A stretch of 64,000 nt of DNA from Escherichia phage EI-SP-GF. The notes below the pieces were generated by a model, which was not told the DNA's origin, ran no database searches, and saw nothing but the letters and a program-made list of their open reading frames with translations. Within the stretch, counting starts at the first letter, position 1. Each line of letters starts with the position of its first letter. The position numbers were made by a program, and so were the translations under genes. Of the stretch, positions 795 to 41,531 are shown one piece after another. Location of the stretch: sequence record OR992645.1; one strand, written 5' to 3'.

Positions 795-2866
795 TGGCAA
801 CAGCTGTTTTTAAACCTTACCGTGATTACTCTACAATGGCTGCACGGTTTCATTACCGCACAGTTCAGGATACTGCAGTTCCGGGTAGGGATTATGATCA
901 TGTTGAGGGCGATGTAACTATCCCGGTTGGGGCAACCAGTATTGAGATCCCTGTAGAAATTGTTGACAAATTGCCAAACAGGTTGCCAAGAAGCTTCTTT
1001 ATGGAGTTTTCATCAAACTCCCAAGGGGTTATGATTGGAACACAAAGAGCGAAATGTACAATAGTTTCAGATGAGAATCTTGACAGAATATCTTGGGATA
1101 CCGTTGAGGAGAGAATGTTTCACCCAAGATACTGGGTTACAACCACACAGCAGACTGAAAGCACCTGTATTGTTGCGGATAATAACTGCTGTATTAACCG
1201 TTTAGTGTCAAGAACATATGGGGGCATGGCTGGGTGCATTTGGGAAACAGTTGACAAGTATGACCATTTCGGCATTGGATTTGATGATCACTACGAGATG
1301 AGAAACACCAAGCTTTGGTTCAGAATGTCAATAACCAATGCCAGCAACTTCTCCACCCCTGAAAAGATGATTATGACTGTAGACCTTGTTGATGGTACAA
1401 TCATCTATGTTCCTTTAGCTCAATATGCTGTCAGCATCTCAGAGGATAAGAATGTTGCAGAAATTCATATTGATTTCGAGGACTGCGTCGGGATGGACCA
1501 GAACAACAACATGATGGGTGTTGATCCTCGGCAGGTGAGAAGGATTCTAATACCACTTATGCCTAAAGATTGGGTAGGTAATAGCACAGACCCGAGAACG
1601 GAAAATGTAGAGTGTGAGTTGCGTCTAGATCTTCTTCAGCCGGACACAGGCTGGAAAATGATGCAACTTAACAATATTCAGGTGAAAGAACACGATGTTG
1701 GGATCTGCACAGCATATGACGATATGTGGAACGTATCCCCTTTAAGGGTGTTGAGCAATATCAAGCGTCTGGGCTATACAGGAACCATAAACCATTATGT
1801 TGGTATGAGCCATTATTATGACTACACATGGTCAGGAACCCAATGGTCTATAAACAAAACAGGAGCTCTAAACGCTGCAGCTTATAAATGGCATGATGAT
1901 TTTATGTACAATGCCAAACGACATGACTTCGACGTTATGCAGTCTGTAAGCTTTGAGCTTTATAGCGATGCCTGTCCGTTGGAATGGACCCAGAGAGACT
2001 GGAACGATAACTATGCTAAAACAGGCTATACGCCTTGTAGTTACCTCCTGTCTCCAACCATTGAAGAGGGCATGAATTTCCTTACTGCAGTATTTAAGAA
2101 TTTTGCATCAGCCGCTATGAGAAACAACCTGCCAGTGATTATGCAGATTGGTGAACCGTGGTGGTGGTTCAATACCGATACTCGTAAGCCTTGTATTTAT
2201 GACTACCCTACAAAGCAGGCGTTTTATGATGAGACTGGTGAATATGCACTAGACATTGGGACTATTGACGATCCTAAAACTGGCGGTGTTTATGACAAGT
2301 ATGTAGCATTTTGTCGTGGTAAGCTTGGCGCTCGTATTGCAGCCATTTCAAAGGCAATAAAAGCACACGCTGCATCGGCTCAGATGACAGCTTTACTGTT
2401 TTTCCCCACTATTATGGAAACCGAGCTTACGCAAAAACTGAACCTTGCTGACCAATATAAAAAGGAAGCAGGTGCTCTTGATTTCTTCTGCACTGAGTGC
2501 TACGATTGGGTGATGCAGGGAGGTATTGAAAAGGCAAAAGAGTCTGTAAACATACCTATCGTTAAGTTAGGTTGGAAACCGTCTGAAATACAATACCTTG
2601 CAGGGTTCGTTCCTAGCAAAGAGCTTGCTCCGGTATATGGCTACGACCCAACCAGGAATTACCAAGAATTTTTATGGAGATGTATTTGCGGAAACATGGC
2701 AACCATAGAGTATAGATACCCTGAGGTAAAACAGTATGTGTGGGCATACCCGCAAGTAATGTCTGACAGCATCACTGTTACCGCCAGAGATTCTACTGTT
2801 CTGCATATGGGGCAGGTTGCTCTGAAAGGGTATGTAGAAGATGTTGTTCCGCCAGACTTCTCATAA
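794..2866 (+). CDS. hypothetical structural protein (690 aa)
   Basis: Long ORF translationally coupled to neighbours inside the fibre module; no motif recognised. Confidence 0.5.
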   Translation: MATAVFKPYRDYSTMAARFHYRTVQDTAVPGRDYDHVEGDVTIPVGATSIEIPVEIVDKLPNRLPRSFFMEFSSNSQGVMIGTQRAKCTIVSDENLDRISWDTVEERMFHPRYWVTTTQQTESTCIVADNNCCINRLVSRTYGGMAGCIWETVDKYDHFGIGFDDHYEMRNTKLWFRMSITNASNFSTPEKMIMTVDLVDGTIIYVPLAQYAVSISEDKNVAEIHIDFEDCVGMDQNNNMMGVDPRQVRRILIPLMPKDWVGNSTDPRTENVECELRLDLLQPDTGWKMMQLNNIQVKEHDVGICTAYDDMWNVSPLRVLSNIKRLGYTGTINHYVGMSHYYDYTWSGTQWSINKTGALNAAAYKWHDDFMYNAKRHDFDVMQSVSFELYSDACPLEWTQRDWNDNYAKTGYTPCSYLLSPTIEEGMNFLTAVFKNFASAAMRNNLPVIMQIGEPWWWFNTDTRKPCIYDYPTKQAFYDETGEYALDIGTIDDPKTGGVYDKYVAFCRGKLGARIAAISKAIKAHAASAQMTALLFFPTIMETELTQKLNLADQYKKEAGALDFFCTECYDWVMQGGIEKAKESVNIPIVKLGWKPSEIQYLAGFVPSKELAPVYGYDPTRNYQEFLWRCICGNMATIEYRYPEVKQYVWAYPQVMSDSITVTARDSTVLHMGQVALKGYVEDVVPPDFS

Positions 2867-2878
2867 TCAGGAGATAAA

Positions 2879-3919
2879 ATGTCAAAACCTAGTTTTCCAT
2901 TAGAGATTTGGGCAGAGGAGGATCAGGTTCTGCCTAACACCCACAGACAGAACAGGCTACGCCCGATTGATGATTTGTGGAGAAAAGGTTGGGATCTTGG
3001 TCAAAAGCCGTCATGTGAAGAACTTAACTATATTTTCAATATGCTCGGGACTTGGGCAAAATATATTGCTGACGAGCAGATCCCCGCCCAAGAGGGCCGT
3101 TATCTGGTACGTGATAATAACCTGAGCGATCTTCTGAACATTCCTGTCGCCCGTAGAAACCTTGGGATTATTACTAAGGAAGAGGCAGACGCCAGGTATG
3201 TAAAAGTTACAGGAGATACAATGACAGGCCCCTTAGGTTTGCAGCGTATCAACTTTAAAGCTGCCGAGACAGATAAGGCTTGGATAGAGACAACTATTGG
3301 TCCAGATAAGACAACTCTCGACTTTGGGTTAAGTGATAACACTGGGGCGTTTGATGATGGTGGCACATCTACAGTAGATGCGTTTCGTTGGAGATTCCAG
3401 CCAACTCAGCCAGACATTAATCCAGAGTTCACTTTGATGTACCTGAACGCGATCACGGCTAACCGTGCGCTGTTGAAAGTGGTAGGTAATGTTGAAGTTG
3501 TCGATAACATGCGGTGTAACAACCTTACCATCAGCAGCACAGCAACATTCACCAACTGTAATGTGGCTAGTCAGTTGACAGCTGGGTCCGTATATGTTAA
3601 TGGCGGCGCAAGTTGTGACAGTATGGTTGTAAGAAGCCAGCATTGTGTTGTCGGTAACAGAAATGTGGTGCGCTCTGTGAATGGAGTGACGGCTAACGGT
3701 AACGGCGATGTAACGATCACCATCCCGCAGACAGGGGTACAGGATATCAGAATCGGTGCAAGACTTGTTGATGGTGTTTCTGAATCTCCAGTTCGCAACG
3801 GCTACGTTGTCACAGGTTGGCATTTTGGTGATAAAAAAGAGATGCGTGGTTCAACCTACTGGGCAGGACCTTTACAAAAACTTGTAAATGGTCAATGGAT
3901 CACTGTTAATTATGCGTAG
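2879..3919 (+). CDS. tail fibre protein, paralog A (346 aa)
   Basis: RBS GGAGATAAA before ATG; motifs YV.KTGDTMTGPL, LGLQRI, FRWRFQP, LNAITANRA; C-terminus KLVNGQWITVNYA shared with the 4932-5978 product. Confidence 0.6.
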   Translation: MSKPSFPLEIWAEEDQVLPNTHRQNRLRPIDDLWRKGWDLGQKPSCEELNYIFNMLGTWAKYIADEQIPAQEGRYLVRDNNLSDLLNIPVARRNLGIITKEEADARYVKVTGDTMTGPLGLQRINFKAAETDKAWIETTIGPDKTTLDFGLSDNTGAFDDGGTSTVDAFRWRFQPTQPDINPEFTLMYLNAITANRALLKVVGNVEVVDNMRCNNLTISSTATFTNCNVASQLTAGSVYVNGGASCDSMVVRSQHCVVGNRNVVRSVNGVTANGNGDVTITIPQTGVQDIRIGARLVDGVSESPVRNGYVVTGWHFGDKKEMRGSTYWAGPLQKLVNGQWITVNYA

Positions 3920-3933
3920 ATCGGAGGACTAGC

Positions 3934-4518
3934 ATGAAAATACTTCAAGAGTTTAAACTTTACCAACCGGGATCTGGCGAATACTACACCAACAAGGAGA
4001 CCAAGGAGCTGACTCCTCAGGAGGTTGAGGATTACACAGCATACACTGGATATTTTTTACGTAATGATGATGGCGATTGGTATGTGCAATCACGAACACT
4101 GCGACAAGAAAATCCCGGCTGTATCTTCTTACTTGTTGACGAGAAGGGTATTCTTAAGACATCTACAGAAGAACCTGATGCCTTGTGGCCTGCTCCAGGT
4201 CTTCGTGTGGTTATCGCCAAAAAAGAAGAGGTACCAGAAAACATTATGCTCCACCACGACGCTTTGCGTTTAGTTGGTGATGAATTTGTCACAGACAATG
4301 AATTCTTTGTTCAACAGGCAGAGGGTGTCATAGAGACAGAACTTGCTTGGGCTACTGCTAGAATTGGTGCCTATCAAGACATGATTGACCTTGAATACGA
4401 TCTTACTGATGACCAAAAACGCAACATCAGAGATTTGAAAATGTACAGGGTAAAACTTCTTGAAATAGATACATCTAAAGCCCCTGACATTTTCTTCCCG
4501 GAACGACCTACCCTCTAA
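3934..4518 (+). CDS. hypothetical protein downstream of fibre A (possible fibre accessory/assembly protein)
   Basis: 194-aa ORF with RBS GGAGGA; function inferred from position only. Confidence 0.4.
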   Translation: MKILQEFKLYQPGSGEYYTNKETKELTPQEVEDYTAYTGYFLRNDDGDWYVQSRTLRQENPGCIFLLVDEKGILKTSTEEPDALWPAPGLRVVIAKKEEVPENIMLHHDALRLVGDEFVTDNEFFVQQAEGVIETELAWATARIGAYQDMIDLEYDLTDDQKRNIRDLKMYRVKLLEIDTSKAPDIFFPERPTL

Positions 4519-4529
4519 GAGGAGGTGTT

Positions 4530-4844
4530 GTGGAGTTGGATTTGGCGGCATTGTACGGTATCTGCATGGGTACCGTTGTCCCGATCTGTGTATGGGCTTT
4601 CAACCAGTGGCACACCAAATGGAAAGGTATTTCCAAGAGGTTGGATGAGCTGGAGAAAGACCTCATTTTAGTGAAAAATAGCATGGTTACAAAAGATAGA
4701 CTTGATTCCATTATCGAGACCCGGTTAAGTAAGCTAGAGGCCGATATTAACGACCTTAAGCAAGATGTCAGGACAGATGTCTCCGGTATCCGAGCTGATG
4801 TACAAAAGATTTTGCACATGCTTGTAGAGCATAGTAAAAGGTAA
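4530..4844 (+). CDS. small membrane-anchored coiled-coil protein
   Basis: GTG start after RBS AAGAGGAGG; hydrophobic N-terminal segment followed by a charged heptad-like region. Confidence 0.4.
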   Translation: MELDLAALYGICMGTVVPICVWAFNQWHTKWKGISKRLDELEKDLILVKNSMVTKDRLDSIIETRLSKLEADINDLKQDVRTDVSGIRADVQKILHMLVEHSKR

Positions 4845-4931
4845 ACAAAGGTAAGAACGGTAAGGATGCCGTTCTTGCATTTTGTTCTCTAAAGTGTTAA
4901 AATAGTCCTTAAGGAATTTTCTCAGGAGAAT

Positions 4932-5978
4932 GTGATGACTAAACCAGTTATCCCTCTCGATATTTGGGCCAATCAGGATGTTGTGCTTGAAAATACAGGA
5001 GAGTTGAACAAGTCTCAACCGAACAAAGAAGAGAGATTGAAAGGTTGGGATATGACACAAAGGATAGCATGTGAAGTTGTTAACTTTGAACTCCACATGC
5101 TCTCTGCGTGGCTAAAGCATTTAACAGAAGATGTTGTCCCTGGATGGGATAATAGATTCTTAAGGGTCACTAATAATCTGGCAGACGTTCCAGACAAAGC
5201 TGCTGCACGTAAAGTCCTCAATGTATACTCGCCTGAAGAAATGGATGACCTGTATGTTGACAAGACTGGGGACACAATGACCCAGACTCAAACTTTGGGT
5301 CTTCAAAGAATCGAGTTTGCATCCGCGTCAACAGACAATGCAGCGATATACACCACCATAACTCCAGACAAAACGATGATGGATTTCTGGATTATGGACA
5401 ACATCGGCGGCGCTGACGGCACAGACCTTGATGATCCTTCTCACCAAATAGACGGTTTCCGTTGGAGATTTCAACCTTCTGGTGGGCAGCCTGTGTTTTC
5501 GGCTATGAAGCTTAATGCTATAACTGCCAACCGTGCAAGACTGGCTATCCAAGGGAATCTTGAATGCAATGATGCAAAAAGCTCCTCTGCAAATGCTAAT
5601 GCGGTAACGATACCAAGAGCCACTGTTAATGGACAACAATCCTGCGGCAGCGCTCAAATAGGTGGAAGAGTGGATTGTAACGATAACACCGCCAGGGGTC
5701 AATATGCAACAGTTGGTGGGAGAAACGTGGTCCGCAGGGTAAATGGTAGTAGCGCAGATAGCAGTGGTAACCTTACTATTCCTATGCCTAGTAGGGGTGT
5801 TGAAGATGTAAGGATAGCAAACCGTTTCAGAACCACCTACAGAGAATCAAGAGTATACCCTGGGCATGTAATGTGCTCCGGCAATTACGCCTATAAACAC
5901 CCGTATCAAGGCGACTATTGGACTGGTGCCATTCAAAAATTTGTAAACGGTCAATGGATCACTATATCTTATGCTTAA
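4932..5978 (+). CDS. tail fibre protein, paralog B (348 aa)
   Basis: Colinear similarity to the 2879-3919 product (DKTGDTMT, LGLQRI, FRWRFQP, LNAITANRA, C-terminal KFVNGQWITISYA); start may be the ATG at 4935. Confidence 0.6.
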   Translation: MMTKPVIPLDIWANQDVVLENTGELNKSQPNKEERLKGWDMTQRIACEVVNFELHMLSAWLKHLTEDVVPGWDNRFLRVTNNLADVPDKAAARKVLNVYSPEEMDDLYVDKTGDTMTQTQTLGLQRIEFASASTDNAAIYTTITPDKTMMDFWIMDNIGGADGTDLDDPSHQIDGFRWRFQPSGGQPVFSAMKLNAITANRARLAIQGNLECNDAKSSSANANAVTIPRATVNGQQSCGSAQIGGRVDCNDNTARGQYATVGGRNVVRRVNGSSADSSGNLTIPMPSRGVEDVRIANRFRTTYRESRVYPGHVMCSGNYAYKHPYQGDYWTGAIQKFVNGQWITISYA

Positions 5979-5987
5979 AGAGGGTAA

Positions 5988-6254
5988 ATGAAATTAACTC
6001 AGTTTTTATGGGGGTTGGTTGCGGCATCGGATGACCCTACGAAAGTGTCCCAATCTAAGCTATGGTCAAACATAGGCATGGCAGTGATGACTGGGGTGTT
6101 TATTCATATGGGGTACAATGATACGCTTCCTGAATGGTATGCGTGGATATACGCACCTTCAGTAGCCTGCCCCCAGCTTATTAGCAAATTCATCTCGCTC
6201 CGGTGGGGTTGCCAGCACCCTGACCACGTTAAAAACGAAGAGCAAAAAGCTTAA
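5988..6254 (+). CDS. small hypothetical protein downstream of fibre B
   Basis: 88-aa ORF with RBS AGAGGG; hydrophobic stretch. Confidence 0.4.
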   Translation: MKLTQFLWGLVAASDDPTKVSQSKLWSNIGMAVMTGVFIHMGYNDTLPEWYAWIYAPSVACPQLISKFISLRWGCQHPDHVKNEEQKA

Positions 6255-6263
6255 GGAGAAATC

Positions 6264-8009
6264 ATGGCGCAAGACATGACAAGCTTCGAGCAGGCGGTAG
6301 ATCAAGTAATTGTTGATTCTGAACGTTTGCACTTGGTTGTCAACGGTAACGCTGTGGATGAAGTTGTCGTAGAGGATGGGACCACTATCCCTACGGTACG
6401 AAAAGCCATGCTTGACAACCTTTATTTTAAAACGCCACCGATCCCTTGGGCGTATGGTGCATCCACAACAGTTTTTAACCAGCTGTATGAGTTTAAAGGA
6501 GATACAGGCCCTCAGTGGTGGTACGCTCCAGCAGCGTCAAAATCTAACCCGGTTAGGATGCCAGCAGATCCTTCACAATCTCCGAACTGGAGATTATACA
6601 CCGACTCTGCAGTAATGGCAAAATACTACGCAAAACTTAACAGCCCAAGGTTCGAAGGTGACCCGAGAGTACCTACACCTCCAATGGATGATAAGTCCGA
6701 GTCTATAGCAAACACAGAGTTTGTTGTTGACTATGTGGATAGCATATTTAAAGCCATGGAGGGGATGAAAGTTACTGTAGGATCTTTGGTGGTAAAAGGT
6801 CTTACAGAACTTGCTAACACTATAGTTGGGGGTACCCTTACCTTACACGGACCTGTTAATGGAGCAGATTCTACTGCACGCTTCAGGAACCTAATCCTTA
6901 CGGCAAATACTTCTACACTGACTTTTGCGTGGAGCGATCCTAAGCATGCAGACTGGAGAAGCACAGAGCTGCAACCTCATGAAGTATCAACTCACAGAGT
7001 TATAGCTGACACTATAACTTCTGGGAAACCAGTGGCTAATAACAACGATGTGCATTTTGATGGTCTAGGTAATAACTTTTTTGACTACGTGTACATTCGC
7101 GGTAATGCCATGAAGGCAGCCACCGAACCGACATTGCAGGTTGATGGGACCACCAGGGTTAAGAACCTTGAGGTGACAGGCACCGTTACAGGGATAACCT
7201 ACTCTGTAGATGGCACCATGATCTACCCTAGCTATATTGAAAGCACGGGAGATGCACTGATCAATGGAGATTTAGAGGTTGGCGGATCTATAGTCATTCG
7301 TGGCACAGCATCTGTCCAGAACATATCTTTAAATACTCTGAGGGTGAATGAGCGTGCCACTTTTGAAGGAGAAGGGCTTACAGCCAACAAAGGTGTAATT
7401 ACCGAGCTGACAACCACCACTTTAACTGCAACAACTGCAAACTCTGAAAACTGCAACGTTACCAGAAACTTGCAGGTAAATGGAGATGTTAGTTTAAACG
7501 CAGCAGGGACTGGCACCACCTACCTTCACAACCTTGAAATATCAGGTACAGTGACTGGGTGGCTGCCAGACTTCTCTAATGTCAACTTTGTCTGTAATGG
7601 CATTAACTCCAGTGGCAAGATAACCACCTCTCAAGAAATTGAAGCTGGTAAAACTATTACTGCCCCTGCTTTCCATGCAGGGAAGGTGGAGTTTGACTTA
7701 GAGGAGGCTGACGCATCTAGTGGGACATGGACACCTAACGGGCAGGCCAATATGTATGTTGTCCACGCGAAAGGGGACTTTACAATAGGGCAATGGCCTG
7801 GAACATCGGCTGAAGATAAACCTTACCCGTTCACTGCAATCATCTATGTCATTCAGGATGCTGTAGGCCACAACGTGACTTTACACGATAAATATGCCAT
7901 ACTGTCGGCTACTCCTGTTATTAACAACAAAGCCAACAGTGTCACCTTGCTACAATTGACATATTGTGGTGTTGGTGATATTGTGGATGTGGTTATTGCA
8001 CAACGTTAA
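6264..8009 (+). CDS. tail fibre / tail spike-like protein (581 aa)
   Basis: RBS AAGGAGA; repetitive G/T/V/N-rich beta-type segments (NLEVTGTVTG, TLTATTANSEN) typical of fibre shafts; terminator-like hairpin downstream. Confidence 0.5.
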   Translation: MAQDMTSFEQAVDQVIVDSERLHLVVNGNAVDEVVVEDGTTIPTVRKAMLDNLYFKTPPIPWAYGASTTVFNQLYEFKGDTGPQWWYAPAASKSNPVRMPADPSQSPNWRLYTDSAVMAKYYAKLNSPRFEGDPRVPTPPMDDKSESIANTEFVVDYVDSIFKAMEGMKVTVGSLVVKGLTELANTIVGGTLTLHGPVNGADSTARFRNLILTANTSTLTFAWSDPKHADWRSTELQPHEVSTHRVIADTITSGKPVANNNDVHFDGLGNNFFDYVYIRGNAMKAATEPTLQVDGTTRVKNLEVTGTVTGITYSVDGTMIYPSYIESTGDALINGDLEVGGSIVIRGTASVQNISLNTLRVNERATFEGEGLTANKGVITELTTTTLTATTANSENCNVTRNLQVNGDVSLNAAGTGTTYLHNLEISGTVTGWLPDFSNVNFVCNGINSSGKITTSQEIEAGKTITAPAFHAGKVEFDLEEADASSGTWTPNGQANMYVVHAKGDFTIGQWPGTSAEDKPYPFTAIIYVIQDAVGHNVTLHDKYAILSATPVINNKANSVTLLQLTYCGVGDIVDVVIAQR

Positions 8010-30853: not shown

Positions 30854-31336
30854 ATGTCAGATTTTATGTGGAAAGTGGGTTATGCCTCTCCTGAAATGTG
30901 CGAGGCTTGCTTTGTAAAAATAGGCCGCGAGGATATTGACAAAGTAATCTTTAAGTTTCGTGATGTATCTGTGATCGGCAACCGAGTGCTTAAGCACTTA
31001 AAGAATCTGAAGCTCACCAAAAAGAAGTTCTTCGGACTTTTCGAAGAGAAAGTTGATGCTTGGACCCATTGCATTCAGGAAGCTAAATCTCACTACAGTG
31101 CTATCGTTACCCCAGAACGGGTAGCCAAGATGGAAGGATTCATCAACAGCACAGAGTTTGAGTGCCTAAAGGCTGCCCTTGATAGCTATCCAAAGTGCCT
31201 CAAACACCTTGACAAGTATGTAGAAAAGGATGGTGAAATGTATCTCACTCTGGACGCATACTATGAGATGCAAGAAATTTTAAATTTAGATTTGACATTG
31301 GTATCCACCGAGTATACAATAGGTATCCGGGTTTAA
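30854..31336 (+). CDS. hypothetical protein
   Basis: 160-aa ORF, RBS AAGGAGAAGG; terminator downstream. Confidence 0.4.
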   Translation: MSDFMWKVGYASPEMCEACFVKIGREDIDKVIFKFRDVSVIGNRVLKHLKNLKLTKKKFFGLFEEKVDAWTHCIQEAKSHYSAIVTPERVAKMEGFINSTEFECLKAALDSYPKCLKHLDKYVEKDGEMYLTLDAYYEMQEILNLDLTLVSTEYTIGIRV

Positions 31337-31341
31337 CACTA

Positions 31342-31370
31342 GGCCCTGCCCGAAAGGGTGGGGCTTTTTG
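31342..31370 (+). terminator. Rho-independent terminator (copy 1 of a duplicated 22-nt hairpin)
   Basis: GCCCTGCCCGAAAGGGTGGGGC followed by TTTTT; identical hairpin at 42142. Confidence 0.55.
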
Positions 31371-31387
31371 CATTAGGAGACAGCAAA

Positions 31388-32152
31388 TTGAAATTTATCT
31401 ACAAAGACCACTACCACAAAGGTGTTGTGTGGAGTCTATTTGACGGGTCTGGTGGTGCAGTTATTGACTGGGCAAAAGCTGGGTACCTGTGCCTGTGCTT
31501 TAATGCAGAAGGTGCTGACCACGGTAGTTATGCAGAGGTGATAACCGATCATCCCAATATTCACTATGTGGATTATTGGATTGACCCATGGTTCCCTCAG
31601 GAAACTTTTTGCATGTACCCAGCTCCAGACTTTATTCTTGCATTTCCTCCGTGCACGCATTTAGCGGTGTCGGGTGCTGCACATTTTAAGAAAAAGCTGG
31701 CTAAGGACCCCCTGATCCAAATTAATGCTGTAAAGGATGCTCGGGTTGCGGAAGAGCTGGGAGAGATTTACGATTGCCCGTGGCATGTAGAGAATCCTGT
31801 TGGTGTTATGTCCACACTGTGGCGCAAACCTGATTACCGTTTTCATCCTTCTGACTATGGCGGGTATTTACCGGAGGATGATGTAAACCCCTGGTTTCCT
31901 GAATTTATAGCTCCACGTGATGCCTATCCAAAAATAACTTGCGGCTGGATAGGTAATGGATTTATAATCCCGGCCACAAAACCTGTCCCGCAAATAGTTG
32001 ACGCGGTTAGCGGGTATTCCATGCAACACGCCAAGCTGGGTGGAAAGAGTGCAAGAACGAAGATGATCCGAAGCCTCACACCACGTGGCTGGGCAAAAGC
32101 CGTATTCTTAGCAAATGAGCCTGTAGTAAGGAGCAGAATTAATGGGAAGTAA
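31388..32152 (+). CDS. C5-cytosine methyltransferase-like protein (short, PCT variant)
   Basis: Motif I-like SLFDGSGG, motif IV-like FPPCTHLAVSG, motif VI-like HVENPVG in canonical order; TTG start 7 nt after AGGAGA; only about 254 aa. Confidence 0.45.
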   Translation: MKFIYKDHYHKGVVWSLFDGSGGAVIDWAKAGYLCLCFNAEGADHGSYAEVITDHPNIHYVDYWIDPWFPQETFCMYPAPDFILAFPPCTHLAVSGAAHFKKKLAKDPLIQINAVKDARVAEELGEIYDCPWHVENPVGVMSTLWRKPDYRFHPSDYGGYLPEDDVNPWFPEFIAPRDAYPKITCGWIGNGFIIPATKPVPQIVDAVSGYSMQHAKLGGKSARTKMIRSLTPRGWAKAVFLANEPVVRSRINGK

Positions 32153-34220
32153 ATTTATGGCATCTGCATACAACCGTTTCGGTGAGCCAAACCCGAAAGC
32201 AACTAAGTATAAAAGTGGGGGAAGTGTGAAACGAGACTATCGTGATGAAAAAGAAGTTGAAACTGTAGAGACTGTTTTAGAAAATACTAAAATTGTCCCT
32301 GTTCCACAACAAAATATCGGACTGATGGCTGCACAGTATTTCGGTGTACGATCATCCCTATCCCAAGAGGATGGTGTAACTGTTACTGCCACCTACTTCC
32401 CGTATTATGACCGCTACGGTAATCTATCTGGCTTTAAAAAGCGTGACTGGACAATCCCTAAAGAGCAAAGGGGCCATTTCTCAGTTGTTGGCATAGTAAA
32501 AGCCAACTCCCAGATGTTTGGTCAAAAGCTGTGTGCATCTTCCAACAACCGTAAGCAGATTAACGTTTGTGAGGGAGAAGGTGATGTTATTGCAGCATGG
32601 CAGGCTGCATATCAGGTGCAAGTAAAAGGAATTCTCACCAATGCTAAAGCCCCAGCGAAGGTGGAGCAGTGGGCTAAAGAGGTCCAGGATGGGATCGATG
32701 CAGTTATCAACGGCGGCGATCTTGCAGGAAAACCCTGCCTACCTTTTGTTGGAATTAACTGCGGGTGTGCAAACGCAGTAGACACTTTTGCGAACAATGA
32801 GAAATTTATCCGTAGCTACGGAACAGTAGTCCTTGCAATGGACAACGATGCAGCTAACGAGGTAGAGAAGCAAAAACACGTTATCAAAGGTGTTGAAGCC
32901 ACACATAATATCGCGGCATTTTTGATGGCTGATAACGTTTACCACGTGGAATACCCCAGTGAGGTAAACGACCCTGACGGTGTAAAAGATATCCGTGACA
33001 TGCTGAAGGCTAAAAAGCTGGAAGATATTGTCAACATGTTCCGTCACCCAGTCAAATATGTGCCTGATGCTGTATCTGATTTAGAAGACTTCTCCATTGA
33101 ATCTCTTCGTAAGAAGACTTCTAATGGCGTAGATATCAGCGCGGAGTTCCCTAAATTGCAGAAGATGCTGAAAGGACTTCACAAAGGCACCTTGATGATG
33201 CTGACAGGCCCATCTGGCGGTGGTAAAACAACTGTAGCCAAGAAACTAGAACACTGCATTGCAAAATACTTGATGGATCCTACATGCCCTAAAGCCGATG
33301 ATTATGAAGAGGATGATCGCCTGTGTCTGATTCACCTTGAAGAGGACCCTGAGGAAGCAATTAACTCTCTATACGCCAACCAGTTGGGGTTTGATGTTAA
33401 AGAGTTTGTTGAAGACCCTAGTCAGTTCCTGACTGATCAGGAGCATGCTGAGATTCACCAATCTTGGGCCAAGGCTGGAAAAATCAAAGTGTTCAAGCAT
33501 TTTGGGTCTATTCCTGTAGATGAGTTGATCACTAAGCTTAAACAAATGGTGTGTCTGTATCACTGCCGTTATATTGTGCTGGATCACCTATCCATGGTAA
33601 TTTCAGGGCTTAATGTTAAGGATGAGCGAAAAGAGCTGGACATGGCTATGACCCAACTAGCCGCGTTCTGTAAGCAGTTTAATGTATTTATCTTGGTGAT
33701 CGCTCACCTGAAACGCACAGAGATTGTGCCTCCAAAGGACAAGGATGGGAATCCGTTACCTTTCTGGTATCCTGTACGAAAAGAGAACCTTCGAGGTAGT
33801 GCCGGATTGGAGCAACTTAGCTGGGTAGTTGTTGGGGTGGAGGCAGAAGAGATGGTGGATCGTTCCCGTGGACGTGTCCGACTGGTAGGTCTTAAAAACC
33901 GCCCAGCAAAAACGTTAGGCATTGCGGATACCTTAGTTATGGATCCTCACACAGGTAAGTTCCATGATGCCAGCAATTGGTACTGGGACAAAGAAATGCA
34001 GATGTTCACAGACGGCGAAGGCGGGGAGGTTGTTTGGAGACCTCAAGCTATGTTTGAGGATCAAGAGCACGCAGTTGTAGAAACACCTGTAGGTAGGGTT
34101 GTGGCTGATAAGGTTGTAACTCCTACTGTTAACCCTGTTGACACACAAGAAGACCTTCCGTATGATGATCCGTCCTCTGACCCTGTTCCCGGTTTTGAAG
34201 ACGATGAAACACCTTTTTAA
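32142..34220 (+). CDS. primase-helicase (TOPRIM primase fused to DnaB-like helicase)
   Basis: TOPRIM-like CEGEGD and LAMDNDAANE; helicase Walker A LTGPSGGGKTT and Walker B YIVLDHLSM; arrangement as in T7 gp4-type proteins. Confidence 0.65.
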   Translation: MGSKFMASAYNRFGEPNPKATKYKSGGSVKRDYRDEKEVETVETVLENTKIVPVPQQNIGLMAAQYFGVRSSLSQEDGVTVTATYFPYYDRYGNLSGFKKRDWTIPKEQRGHFSVVGIVKANSQMFGQKLCASSNNRKQINVCEGEGDVIAAWQAAYQVQVKGILTNAKAPAKVEQWAKEVQDGIDAVINGGDLAGKPCLPFVGINCGCANAVDTFANNEKFIRSYGTVVLAMDNDAANEVEKQKHVIKGVEATHNIAAFLMADNVYHVEYPSEVNDPDGVKDIRDMLKAKKLEDIVNMFRHPVKYVPDAVSDLEDFSIESLRKKTSNGVDISAEFPKLQKMLKGLHKGTLMMLTGPSGGGKTTVAKKLEHCIAKYLMDPTCPKADDYEEDDRLCLIHLEEDPEEAINSLYANQLGFDVKEFVEDPSQFLTDQEHAEIHQSWAKAGKIKVFKHFGSIPVDELITKLKQMVCLYHCRYIVLDHLSMVISGLNVKDERKELDMAMTQLAAFCKQFNVFILVIAHLKRTEIVPPKDKDGNPLPFWYPVRKENLRGSAGLEQLSWVVVGVEAEEMVDRSRGRVRLVGLKNRPAKTLGIADTLVMDPHTGKFHDASNWYWDKEMQMFTDGEGGEVVWRPQAMFEDQEHAVVETPVGRVVADKVVTPTVNPVDTQEDLPYDDPSSDPVPGFEDDETPF

Positions 34221-34278: not shown

Positions 34279-37056
34279 ATGAGTATGTGGTCTTTCGACC
34301 TGGAGGCCTCTGGTTTACTAGAAGACCTAGATCTTTATTATCACTGCGGCTTGTTTAAAGAGCTGAATAAGAACCGTTTTATGCTGTTCCTTCCTCTAAA
34401 TGACCGCACACACTACTCTGAAGAGGATATAGAGAAGGCTAAGAACTTTATTCTGGCAAAGAAAACTCTTTATAAAGATTTTGAAGTTCGCATAGCAGAT
34501 TTTTCAGAGTTGGAAGGTTGGCTTACAGGCAATTCTGACTGGTCACCCACAGCTTTGAACTGCCACAACTGCTACAGCTACGACTTTATGCTGATGGAGA
34601 GATTGTCCGGTATTCATTTTGATATGTTCCGTGACCCTAAGTGTATGGGGACTATCAACGACCACCAGGTTAATCTGTTTGATACGTTGGCGATGAGCCG
34701 AATCTTGTGGCCTGATCGCCCTTTACCAAAAGGTTGTCCGGACTCTGTATTCAACCCGGTTACTAAGAAAATGCAGCCTGTTGGTCCTCACGGACTTATG
34801 GCATGGGGCTACGCCCTTGGTAACCAGAAAGTTCAAATTGATGACTGGCGCGATCTTCCGTTGTGGAAGTATGTGGATCGTGTATTCGAGGACGTTATCA
34901 TCCAGGAGCTGCTCTGGAAAGAGCTGGTAGCGGAATCAAAAGGTGTATTCTACGGCAAATCTGACATGCAGAACTTTATGTACGATCCAGCCAAAGAGAA
35001 GCCGAAAGGGTTCAAGAAGATCACCTGGAAGAACGCATTACGTCGAGGCATGCTGCAGCACTTCCTGATGGAGCTGCAGGCCCGTCAGGGTGTATACTTC
35101 GACATAGATGGAGCTATTGCTTTACGTGACCGTTGCGATGCGTGGATGAAAGAAATAGCTGATCGTGTTGAACCACAACTGCCTTTAAAAGAGCTGTCAA
35201 TGTCTCAGCGGCCCAAGTTCCCTGAAAAGCCGTTTAACCAAGACGGGACAATCTCTAATAATGGTTGGAAATGGTTAAAAGATAAGCTTGGCTATCCTGT
35301 AGACATGAGCGCTTTAGAGTTCAAAGCCCCGCCTAAGAGAGCATTTACCTCTACAGGGGATGTCAGCAAGATGGGGATAAAATGGTGTGAAGAGATGGGC
35401 TGCAAAGACCCCGATAAGATGGCTGATTTCTTGAGAGGCTATATTAAGGGCACTTCCACACCACACCCTTTGCCTAAAGAGCTGATGGATCAGGCAATAA
35501 GTGATCTACAGCAGAAGCGAATGCCGGACTGCAAGATACCTATGAAAATCAGCAATCAGGACGACATTAAGCGGTATCTGATCAGCGCTGGCTGGCTCCC
35601 GACAATGTGGAGAACTAAGGATGTAACTAAAGACAGCAAGAAGAAAGCTCTACCTGATGCAGATGTTGATGCACGAGTATATGCTTATATGGACGAGCTT
35701 TTAGAGTCAGAGTATTGTGACCTAATTATCAACTTCTGGAACAAAACTGATGCTAAGTTCCAGACAACCGTGCACAAGTTCCGAAGCTTTCCTAACTCCG
35801 AAAGGATTAAAAAGGAAGTGTTCGGGAAAATACGTAGAAAAGCCAGGGCACTTATTACTTCTCCGCAACTGAAAGATACGTTTGGACACCTGTGTCCGAA
35901 TCTTGAAAAATTGAACGGAGAGATGGCTAAAGATATCGTCTTGTGGTTATCATTGCGAAACCGCAGATCGGTCCTTGACCCAATCAAGGAGGATAAGGTT
36001 GATACTGGTCTTCTTAATCACCCACGTTTGAAGATTGACCATAAGCTTCCTGCTAAAAGTTCTGGGCTAACAAACACTTCCAGACAGAAACACAGTATTT
36101 GTGCAAACATGCCTAAACCATCTCCTAAAGTGGTTATGGGTAAAGAGATGCGTAGTCTATGGGGTGTTCCTCCTGGATACTTTCAGATCGGTATTGACGG
36201 GTCCAACTTAGAGCAGCTTATCGGGGCTTGGGGTGCCTTTGAGTTCGACAACGGCCTGTATTATGATGTTGTAAGTAACGGAGACGCACACCAAAACAAT
36301 GCTGAGGCATATACAAAAGTAGCAGGCAGAGAGGTGTCCCGTAACGACGGTAAACCTATCACGTATGGTGTTATGTACGGGGCACAAAAAGATAAAGTTG
36401 CAGATATGCTGGACATCTCTCCAGAGTTGGGGCAAAGGGTAATAGATGCACTTTGGGATGCCAACCCCGGTCTTAAGGGGCGCAAAGAGGATCTGGAGAA
36501 ATTCTGGGAAGCAACAGGTAAGAAGTTTATCTACTCTTTTGACGGTCATGCTATTTGGACACGCTCTAAACACTCTTTGCTTAATGCATATCAGCAAAAT
36601 GGCGGTGCATCACTGTGTGACCTAGTTGGGATACTCATGCACCACCAGATGGTGAAGCGTGGATGGTATGATGAGGGTGTTCGTCGTATTATCTATTACC
36701 ATGACGAATATCAGCTTCAAGTGCCTGACACACCTAAGTATAAAACCGTATACACCTTCGACACAATTGAAGAGCTGGAAACATTTAAAGCCCAACAAGA
36801 GGCTAAACTTCATGTGTTCGACGGTCATAAGTACAAAAAGGCACGCAAAGATGAGGACGGAAACGAAGTGGTTGACAAGGATGGAAATACGGTATACGAT
36901 CCTATCTTGAACGATGACGGAAAGCTTGAACTTATCTGGAGCCCTGTGGGCGAAATGGTGGTGCATTGCTTCTGGCAGGCTTCTAAAATGATGGGCGTTC
37001 CGTTCCAGATCACAGGTGAATACTTGTGCGGTCGTAACTGGGGCGATTGTCACTAA
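34279..37056 (+). CDS. family-A DNA polymerase with 3'-5' exonuclease domain
   Basis: Exo I-like FDLEASG near the N-terminus; motif B-like R..GK.ITYGVMYG; motif C YYHDEYQ; 925 aa. Confidence 0.75.
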   Translation: MSMWSFDLEASGLLEDLDLYYHCGLFKELNKNRFMLFLPLNDRTHYSEEDIEKAKNFILAKKTLYKDFEVRIADFSELEGWLTGNSDWSPTALNCHNCYSYDFMLMERLSGIHFDMFRDPKCMGTINDHQVNLFDTLAMSRILWPDRPLPKGCPDSVFNPVTKKMQPVGPHGLMAWGYALGNQKVQIDDWRDLPLWKYVDRVFEDVIIQELLWKELVAESKGVFYGKSDMQNFMYDPAKEKPKGFKKITWKNALRRGMLQHFLMELQARQGVYFDIDGAIALRDRCDAWMKEIADRVEPQLPLKELSMSQRPKFPEKPFNQDGTISNNGWKWLKDKLGYPVDMSALEFKAPPKRAFTSTGDVSKMGIKWCEEMGCKDPDKMADFLRGYIKGTSTPHPLPKELMDQAISDLQQKRMPDCKIPMKISNQDDIKRYLISAGWLPTMWRTKDVTKDSKKKALPDADVDARVYAYMDELLESEYCDLIINFWNKTDAKFQTTVHKFRSFPNSERIKKEVFGKIRRKARALITSPQLKDTFGHLCPNLEKLNGEMAKDIVLWLSLRNRRSVLDPIKEDKVDTGLLNHPRLKIDHKLPAKSSGLTNTSRQKHSICANMPKPSPKVVMGKEMRSLWGVPPGYFQIGIDGSNLEQLIGAWGAFEFDNGLYYDVVSNGDAHQNNAEAYTKVAGREVSRNDGKPITYGVMYGAQKDKVADMLDISPELGQRVIDALWDANPGLKGRKEDLEKFWEATGKKFIYSFDGHAIWTRSKHSLLNAYQQNGGASLCDLVGILMHHQMVKRGWYDEGVRRIIYYHDEYQLQVPDTPKYKTVYTFDTIEELETFKAQQEAKLHVFDGHKYKKARKDEDGNEVVDKDGNTVYDPILNDDGKLELIWSPVGEMVVHCFWQASKMMGVPFQITGEYLCGRNWGDCH

Positions 37057-39849: not shown

Positions 39850-40260
39850 ATGGTGTCTCCTTTATGTTGTTCAAATAAAATCGGAGATTCCACAATGGAA
39901 CAAATGAACGATCAAGCGTCGGTTGCGATGAACGAGCAAGAACAACCTCAAGAATTTTTCTTAGGGTTAAGCAAAGATCAAGTGTCTCTTCTGCTGGTAC
40001 TTTCTTCTTTTATGGGAAGACTTCAGGAGCTCACACAACAACCAGAGGCTGAACAGTTATTTCAGGCTCTGCGCGAAGAAGAAAAATATCGTCGTTTGGA
40101 TTATGCCTTAGGTTGGGTAGCTCAGCAACGAGATATGCTAATGGCCCTTTCTGGGACGACAAGTTTTGCAATGGGCCTGTTGGCTCAAGTGCAGGACAAA
40201 TTAATTCAAGCAGGGTTTGCACACACAGCAAACACCAACGAAGAACAAGGAGACAAATAA
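39850..40260 (+). CDS. hypothetical protein
   Basis: 136-aa ORF, RBS AAGGAGA. Confidence 0.4.
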   Translation: MVSPLCCSNKIGDSTMEQMNDQASVAMNEQEQPQEFFLGLSKDQVSLLLVLSSFMGRLQELTQQPEAEQLFQALREEEKYRRLDYALGWVAQQRDMLMALSGTTSFAMGLLAQVQDKLIQAGFAHTANTNEEQGDK

Positions 40261-41531
40261 TGAGCGTTATTCAACAATTTGCCAACCCGATGAATCCGCG
40301 TGAAACTGTTTTACTGGCTCACGGTATGATTAAACGTGTCAGCATCAAGCCCATTAAAGGTGCTGATCCTACAACAGGTATTAAAACCACTGTGTGGCAA
40401 GGTAAGAAAATTGAATCCAGCCACACCATCTCTTTACTGATTTCTGAACTGGACTCCTCTGATAACCTGCTCCAAGGTGGTGAAGAAGTTTGGATCAGTA
40501 TGGGTGATAAACTGCTTAAGCATGGTCATCAAGACTCCGTCTCTGTTAAAATTGACGACAAGTGGGAAACCGTAACGCCAGGATGGATCGTAAATATCCC
40601 TTTGAAGGCAAACGAGCATAACGGCAAGACCTACTACAAAGGCTCACTGGCTAAAATGGTTAAGTTGGGGGCAGGAGAGGCTCCAGCAGCGCCACAGCAA
40701 CAAAAACAGCAACAAGGCACACAATCACAAGGCCAGAAGCAGAAACCTCAGCAGAATGCCAATCAGGACGTTTTACGCATCTATGGTGATGTGACTCAGA
40801 TTGTTGGCAACGTGGTTACTGTCAATGATCACAAGATTGGTGAAGGTGCTATGGTTGTCACGGATGAGCAGCTTAAAGACCTGGTGGTAGGTGGTCGTGT
40901 TGCAGCCATTGTTGACAAAGACACCGGAAACATTATCAGTGGTTTCAAAGCCTACCCACCTAAGGCAGAGAACGGTACACAAGGTTCTGGTGGTAAGCGT
41001 AAATCCTCTTACGACCCCATCGGTGTAGAGACAGGGCACAGTATCAATGCATTGCAGATCATCCTGGATCGCGGGTTTAAGATTGACAGCCCTTTAGATG
41101 TGGCTAAAACACTGCACGTGGTCACCATCGAGCTTAAGAAAGAGTACGCTCAAGCCACTAACCGAACTGAAGATGAAGTAGGTGCCAGTGTTGGTAATGC
41201 GGTATTGAACGCTTGTCGCCGTATTGACAAGAAAACGAAAGTTGATGATTTTGCAGTAGCAATTACTGCAGAGGCAAAAGATGTCTTGACTAATCTTGCT
41301 GAACCGTTGTATGATTGGATCAAGAACGGTGCTGGAGCCACTGACCATCAAGAGCCTCAAGCTGCCAAACAGGAAGCCGCCCCACAGCAAAACACTGTAG
41401 ACGCTCCTCCTGTAGATGATGCGGAAGACGACCCGATGGATCAGAATCCGGCACAGTACGACTTCTGTGATGACATACCTTTCGCTCCGGTAGGTCTGCA
41501 ATATGGTAAAAGTAGAATCTACGCATTGTAA
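40260..41531 (+). CDS. putative ssDNA-binding protein with Gln-rich linker and DDIPF motif
   Basis: Start at ATG overlapping the upstream stop (TAATG); low-complexity Q-rich linker; acidic C-terminal region containing DDIPF about 17 residues before the end; sits between polymerase and nuclease-like genes. Confidence 0.4.

Follow-up and report, generated by a model that had tools for sequence, protein, structure and literature searches.

The gene considered here belongs to Escherichia phage EI-SP-GF and lies at 31388-32152, on the plus strand, of a 64,000-nucleotide stretch of sequence record OR992645.1 (positions 1-64000, hereafter the window). It runs for 765 nt from a TTG start to a TAA stop and encodes a protein of 254 amino acids. 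Very probably that protein is an active, orphan, S-adenosylmethionine (SAM)-dependent DNA cytosine-C5 methyltransferase (C5-MTase), small and one of the 'Dcm-like' proteins of phages that make up the compact family PHROG 757. Direct support for this reading comes from the fold, from conservation and homology, from purifying selection and from the gene's context; activity, cofactor, target sequence and biological benefit we infer. The original prediction, made from the letters alone, had placed a protein of about 254 amino acids here, and the open reading frame (ORF) is real. Among the three roles it offered was that of a minimal DNA C5-MTase, which has fared well: the fold matches, the presumed catalytic Cys and Glu are invariant, the gene is under purifying selection, and a 54%-identical homologue, the 'Dcm' of phage K42, is reported to form 5-methylcytosine (5mC).

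It was the structural model that proved decisive for the C5-MTase fold. AlphaFold2 returned a prediction with a local confidence score (pLDDT) of 89.2, and a predicted template-modelling score (pTM) of 0.89, in which strands and helices alternate as they should, and a Foldseek search with that model found DNMT3A/B at E ~1e-5 and a template-modelling (TM) score of ~0.55. As modelled, both the overall fold and the order of the strands match. A solved structure exists for no member of the compact PHROG 757 family. In a fold comparison DNA methyltransferases placed above DNMT2, a ranking that bears on a second role offered by the original prediction, that of an enzyme acting on RNA or nucleotides. 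Such a protein would be a DNMT2-like m5C methyltransferase of RNA (tRNA) or of free nucleotides. The CFT motif typical of DNMT2 is not in the window protein; the substrate of the K42 homologue is DNA, namely the multicopy single-stranded DNA (msDNA) of a retron; the gene keeps company with helicase and primase genes in DNA-replication modules across phage families; and ARAGORN found no tRNA genes in the whole 64-kb window. An RNA or nucleotide substrate is very improbable on this evidence.

Conservation was judged over 79 full-length representatives, most of them from a library clustered at 50% identity and differing from one another at more than half of their positions. FDGSGG, FPPCTHLAVSG and HVENPVG had been read as motifs I, IV and VI in their canonical order, and all three were located in the translation, on the plus strand like every protein feature that follows. 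Motif I (residues 18-23; 31439-31456) is presumed to form the SAM-binding loop after strand 1. It has the FxGxG loop, and its aligned counterparts are SLFDGIATG in DNMT3B and SLFSGAGG in M.HaeIII; in the wider family it is degenerate, with a consensus of LFDx[TS]G. Motif IV (residues 86-96; 31643-31675) carries Cys89 (31652-31654), the presumed catalytic nucleophile, present in 79 of 79. The Thr that follows it had been singled out as a replacement for the canonical Gln. Thr90 is really there, but it is no anomaly: it occurs in 71 of the 79 representatives and Gln just once, which makes PCT the usual form of motif IV in this family. Motif VI (residues 133-139; 31784-31804) supplies Glu135 (31790-31792), which presumably protonates cytosine N3 and is again found in all 79, followed by Asn136 (75 of 79) and by Pro137 in place of the canonical Val (78 of 79). 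Pro154, Tyr180, Trp187 and Pro195 complete the set of invariant residues.

Further along comes a motif VIII-like strand, RDAYPKITCGW (residues 177-187; 31916-31948), in which D178 is conserved in 76 representatives, Y180 and W187 in all 79, and K182 and T184 in 78 each. Most relatives have a second Lys where this protein has Ile183 (31934-31936), so that PKKT becomes PKIT in the Vequintavirus protein. Next is a variable segment of about 40 amino acids (residues 188-226; 31949-32065), dependent on subgroup and set in the model between a strand at 184-189 and helices from 212 onward; family alignments divide it into GYSxQH... and DNPGW... subtypes. It occupies the position of the target-recognition domain (TRD) and, while far smaller than the TRD of M.HhaI-type enzymes, is comparable to that of DNMT3. 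To say that the protein has no obvious recognition domain was thus an overstatement, although the segment is indeed short. The C-terminus amounts to one motif IX/X-like element of the form RSLTPRG...AN, with the sequence IRSLTPRGWAKAVFLAN (residues 227-243, the last helix; 32066-32116). Its R228 and G234 are each found in 77 of the 79, P232 in 75, A238 in 74 and N243 in 60, and the model places a helix at 233-251.

Asn243 matters for another explanation, in which the C5-MTase fold is kept and something other than a methyl group is transferred. The protein would then be a CmoX-like cytosine C5-carboxymethyltransferase working with carboxy-SAM (Cx-SAM), which CmoA of the E. coli host produces, and its product a handle for hypermodification. 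CmoX has no clear lead in the fold comparison, where DNMT3B, 3g7u, M.HhaI and M.HaeIII reach much the same score. The hallmarks of CmoX (Protein Data Bank (PDB) code 8yf3) are an SPPC motif, an Arg that replaces Asn304 of M.HhaI and binds the Cx-SAM carboxylate, and an adjacent CmoA (PMC12783734). Both SPPC and the Arg are missing from the window protein, which has FPPC and the conserved Asn243 instead. Nor is a partner gene for CmoA or CmoY, or one for an amide ligase, annotated in the corresponding 42 kb examined (55.7-98.0 kb) of Bas59, a related phage, and the 54%-identical K42 enzyme yields 5mC. We consider carboxymethyl transfer very unlikely, and return to methyl transfer.

The K42 work supplies the experimental side of the argument. 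K42 is a strain of phage KarlJaspers (Bas06, Drexlerviridae), and its escapers from retron Ec86 mapped to a 711-bp 'Dcm' gene, expression of which was toxic solely when the retron was present (bioRxiv 10.1101/2023.08.16.553469). Liquid chromatography coupled to mass spectrometry (LC-MS) found high 5mC in msDNA with wild-type K42 Dcm and low 5mC with a C82A/E128A/K175A/K176A mutant or an empty vector; mutation of the CCTGG in the msDNA stem led to loss of defence (bioRxiv 10.1101/2023.08.16.553469). In the KarlJaspers genome we find exactly one 711-bp Dcm-like gene. The encoded protein is 54% identical to ours over the full length (E 3e-86), and its C82, E128 and K175 are our C89, E135 and K182. 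MG1655, the strain used for the empty-vector control, itself carries dcm, and yet methylation of msDNA was low; the control is therefore informative, and the K42 enzyme must differ from the host Dcm in level or in substrate preference.

A good deal weighs on the other side, and we set it out together. In the literature we came across neither a methylome nor restriction digests of a Vequintavirus. The sequence evidence for C5-MTase identity is thin. Profile comparison had been proposed alongside the original prediction, and it gave a divided answer: the protein itself does not match Pfam PF00145 even at E 10, although 18 of 25 close relatives do so at E<1. Three of them (P0069, P0054 and P0072) pass the 22-bit cut-off, at 24.7-28.5 bits, through matches that span only positions 4-94 of the 324 in the profile. 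These are motifs I-IV, and so far as sequence goes PF00145-like features are confined to the N-terminal third. An NCBIfam scan of the window protein found nothing, and a PADLOC scan gave no informative match. Against PDB sequences, phmmer and a profile of the close family gave no more than marginal matches (E 0.16-1), although with the profile residues 5-86 fell into register with DNMT3B and M.HaeIII (SLFDG with SLFDGIATG, PPCTDLA with SPCNDLS); a more diverse family profile found no C5-MTase among the PDB sequences and brought up SDR Rossmann proteins at E ~0.1. Aligned by hhalign with the single sequence of E. coli K-12 Dcm, the family gave an insignificant probability of 0.4%, over 25 columns around motif IV only. 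Orthology to E. coli Dcm could not be detected, so that 'Dcm-like' is a name and not an established specificity.

The same paragraph of difficulties extends to three details of the protein. At the motif II position, where an acidic residue would by analogy bind the SAM ribose, it has Asn39 (31502-31504), and Asp is kept in 74 of the 79 relatives. QxRxR, which canonical enzymes have as motif VIII, is missing, and D-x-Y-x-K-x-T-x-x-W stands in its place. Finally, Ile183 corresponds to K176 of K42 Dcm, one of the four residues changed in the mutant. An invariant Asp44-His45-Gly46 lies just after Asn39 in the enterobacterial-phage subgroup.

Taken at face value, PCT, Asn39 and the lack of RxR might describe a dead or altered DNA-binding protein that has kept the fold and lost methyl transfer, which is the catalytically altered binding protein of the original prediction. 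The absence of a Pfam match, the Asn in place of the family's Asp, the Ile in place of a Lys mutated in the K42 study and the non-canonical motif VIII would all fit. They have to be set against Cys89 and Glu135, invariant in 79, and against the constraint on the gene. Relative to JEP1 there are 48 nucleotide differences and 5 amino-acid differences, and relative to Gotham 38 and 3, with ratios of nonsynonymous to synonymous substitution rates (dN/dS) of 0.027 and 0.021, respectively. Values of 0.02-0.03 indicate strong purifying selection within Vequintavirus. The PCT consensus is also that of an enzyme reported to be active, and Asn at motif II is what the enterobacterial-phage subgroup has, as does the KarlJaspers/K42-type enzyme. 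The KarlJaspers protein, moreover, scores only 11 bits on PF00145, so that oddities of this kind do not preclude activity. DNMT3A/B have PCN and no Gln at the equivalent place, and are active with it. Loss of catalysis is a very improbable explanation, and the idea of an altered binding protein finds no support; we continue with an active methyltransferase.

What such an enzyme might recognize is a harder question. A CCWGG (EcoRII-type) target is our working guess, one that by analogy has a little under an even chance of being right. Several things bear on it. CCWGG is assumed by analogy and not mapped; for the K42 enzyme, too, it was taken over from E. coli Dcm without mapping (bioRxiv 10.1101/2023.08.16.553469). 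The window contains 138 CCWGG sites, an observed/expected ratio of 0.86 on a Markov model and of 1.66 on mononucleotide composition, and this absence of avoidance is compatible with protection but cannot establish specificity. Klebsiella phage KP36 encodes a family member, gp74 (NC_029099, 1489-2181), that is 48% identical to ours. KP36 DNA is fully EcoRII-resistant despite 155 sites, and the phage was said to be without a cytosine methyltransferase, the resistance being credited to host Dcm (2013 KP36 paper). That conclusion overlooked gp74 and may need revisiting; host Dcm confounds the result. Then there is the phenotyping of the BASEL collection, in which Vequintavirinae were "exceptionally susceptible" to the restriction-modification (RM) systems tested. 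Any protection must therefore be narrow. As a purpose, anti-restriction is no more than plausible.

Counts of other sites in the window are a separate observation. GATC, like CCWGG, is not depleted. Several short palindromes fall below Markov expectation: CTAG (70 against 128 expected), GTAC (128 against 202), CCGG (111 against 152) and CCCGGG (1 against 4.2).

We also considered that the family may be functionally unlike Dcm. It might then recognize something different from CCWGG and its inner C, and it might also favour unusual substrates such as hairpin, single-stranded or replication-fork DNA; the benefit would in that case lie elsewhere than in classical anti-restriction. Grounds for this are the missing RxR, a presumed recognition module of only ~40 amino acids and an N-terminal third that alone is recognizable to Pfam. 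The high 5mC in msDNA against a low empty-vector control, the coupling to primase/helicase and the RM sensitivity of Vequintavirinae are all consistent with it. We hold it to be unlikely.

None of this concerns a rare gene. Over 100 rV5-like phages of Escherichia, all in the genus Vequintavirus, have it with 96-98% nucleotide identity, and it is an ordinary gene of such phages, already annotated and with a homologue already characterized. Bas59 (BASEL phage EduardKellenberger) names the coding sequence (CDS) "Dcm-like C5 cytosine methyltransferase", an annotation in near-identical genomes of which the earlier reader was unaware. Elsewhere it is entered as "putative site specific DNA methylase", as "DNA methyltransferase" or simply as "hypothetical protein". 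The match to PHROG 757 ("DNA methyltransferase") has an E of 1.2e-86 and pairs residues 2-251 with positions 5-226 of the 247 in the profile. With tblastn we found a homologue in 1,503 phage records, among them Vequintavirinae, Drexlerviridae, a Jersey-type Salmonella phage, Dhillonvirus, phiKO2, 164-169-kb Escherichia/Shigella phages and Vibrio and Arthrobacter phages. A database clustered at 90% held 3,545 homologues, and when HMMER was run exhaustively over the representatives of 1.84 billion clusters, 2,016 of these (50% identity) scored E<1e-3, with 200 reaching E<1e-30. Nearly all of the best 150 cluster representatives are 200-260 amino acids long. The family's signature residues (PPCT, ENP, D-x-Y-x-K-x-T-x-x-W, GGK and RS-TPRG) are all in the window protein, which also falls within the family's usual length of ~210-260 amino acids. 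PHROG 757 is, in short, a large family of compact orphan proteins borne by phages.

GenBank also has 16 unannotated 'Campylobacter phage' entries (MG065644, MG065690, MG065662 and others), of 135-143 kb and with C. jejuni given as host, that are 97-98% identical to the methyltransferase gene; entries of this kind match the window's first 25 kb as well. They have the look of rV5-like coliphage genomes that were mislabelled or came in as contaminants.

The company the gene keeps is that of DNA replication. In the window it has replication genes for neighbours and no cognate restriction endonuclease, and is in that sense an orphan. Family members in other phages adjoin helicase, primase or Dam genes. 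A homologue on an E. coli chromosome lies in the nin region of a lambdoid prophage, beside Dam, NinG, RusA and antiterminator Q, again with no endonuclease. A Dam-type N6-adenine methyltransferase often accompanies a family member in one phage or prophage: the Dam-type and Dcm-like loci are at 1729-3720 in Sortsne, at 33019-33720 and 40087-40797 in KarlJaspers, and at 4494-6747 in the E. coli prophage. In the last of these and in Sortsne they are within ~2 kb of one another. The inspected portion of a related Vequintavirus genome has no annotated Dam-like gene.

The gene begins at its TTG. A Shine-Dalgarno sequence, AGGAG (31375-31379, plus strand), can be read directly 8 nt 5' of it, and GenBank annotates a 765-nt CDS of the same extent in Bas59, JEP1 and Gotham. 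The program-called ORF opens instead at an in-frame GTG at 31358, which falls within a hairpin; all homologues and the GenBank annotations share the TTG. Downstream on the plus strand is the primase/helicase gene (32142-34220), whose ATG start gives it an 11-nt overlap with the 3' end of the methyltransferase gene, and next comes a DNA polymerase ORF of 925 amino acids (34279-37056). These two ORFs bear out the position that the original prediction gave the gene, 5' of primase/helicase and polymerase. Bas59 has the same primase/helicase and polymerase genes on one side and hypothetical genes on the other. Given the overlap, the methyltransferase and primase/helicase genes are probably co-transcribed and translationally coupled.

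Upstream, between the preceding ORF and the ribosome-binding site, a GC-rich hairpin followed by a T-run resembles a terminator (31341-31366, plus strand; RNA folding energy -22.8 kcal/mol, z -2.6). It might mark the end of the upstream unit, or be a 5' stabilizer or an attenuator. A sigma-70-like promoter match, TTGACA-17-TACAAT, agrees with the consensus at 11 of 12 positions (31292-31320, plus strand); identified through that consensus match alone, it falls inside the preceding ORF, at its 3' end. It precedes the hairpin by ~20 nt, and a transcript begun there would reach the hairpin almost immediately.

How the enzyme would work follows the C5-MTase paradigm. The target cytosine would be flipped out of the helix, Cys89 (motif IV, PPC-T) would attack C6 and Glu135 (motif VI, ENP) would protonate N3; the methyl group of SAM would pass to C5, and beta-elimination would free the enzyme. 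In this scheme the large Rossmann-type domain is complete, and the recognition module would be cut down to ~40 residues plus the motif IX-like RSLTPRG, as in a minimal DNMT3 catalytic domain. The gene would be co-expressed with replication genes and, given its overlap with the one for primase/helicase, the enzyme would methylate new phage DNA while synthesis is under way. What the phage would probably gain is protection against restriction enzymes that are blocked by m5C at the methyltransferase's target. A cost is known as well: enzymes of this kind can trigger retron Ec86/Eco1.

As a discovery the gene is of small value, being a conserved and annotated gene of rV5-like phages with relatives in more than 1,500 sequenced phages. 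Its practical interest lies elsewhere. Family enzymes are documented triggers of retron Ec86/Eco1, and the gene may thus shape the host range of therapeutic Vequintavirus phages. If the enzyme is active, 5mC in virion DNA would have a bearing on restriction mapping and nanopore base-calling, as well as on how sensitive the DNA is to methyl-dependent (type IV) restriction.

How, then, does it compare with better-known enzymes? With M.HhaI and M.HaeIII (PF00145) and E. coli Dcm it has in common the fold, the motif order I, IV, VI, IX and the presumed Cys/Glu chemistry. It is ~70-220 amino acids shorter than these canonical type II C5-MTases and has no PF00145 match; it has PCT where they have PCQ and ENP where they have ENV, lacks QxRxR, and makes do with a presumed TRD of ~40 amino acids against ~80 or more. 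The closest solved enzymes in structure are DNMT3A/B, which likewise lack a Gln after the Cys. Identity to them is 12-15%, they combine ENV with RxR where the phage family has ENP with D-x-Y-x-K-x-T, and DNMT3, which is eukaryotic, is regulated and forms oligomers. That leaves K42 Dcm. The two phages differ in family (ours is a myovirus of the genus Vequintavirus) and in the neighbourhood of the gene, and the variable segment (residues ~200-215) reads GYSMQH in the window protein and DNPGW in K42 Dcm, so the specificities may differ. PPCT, ENP, PK-T-W, RSLTPRG and the Asn at motif II are common to both.

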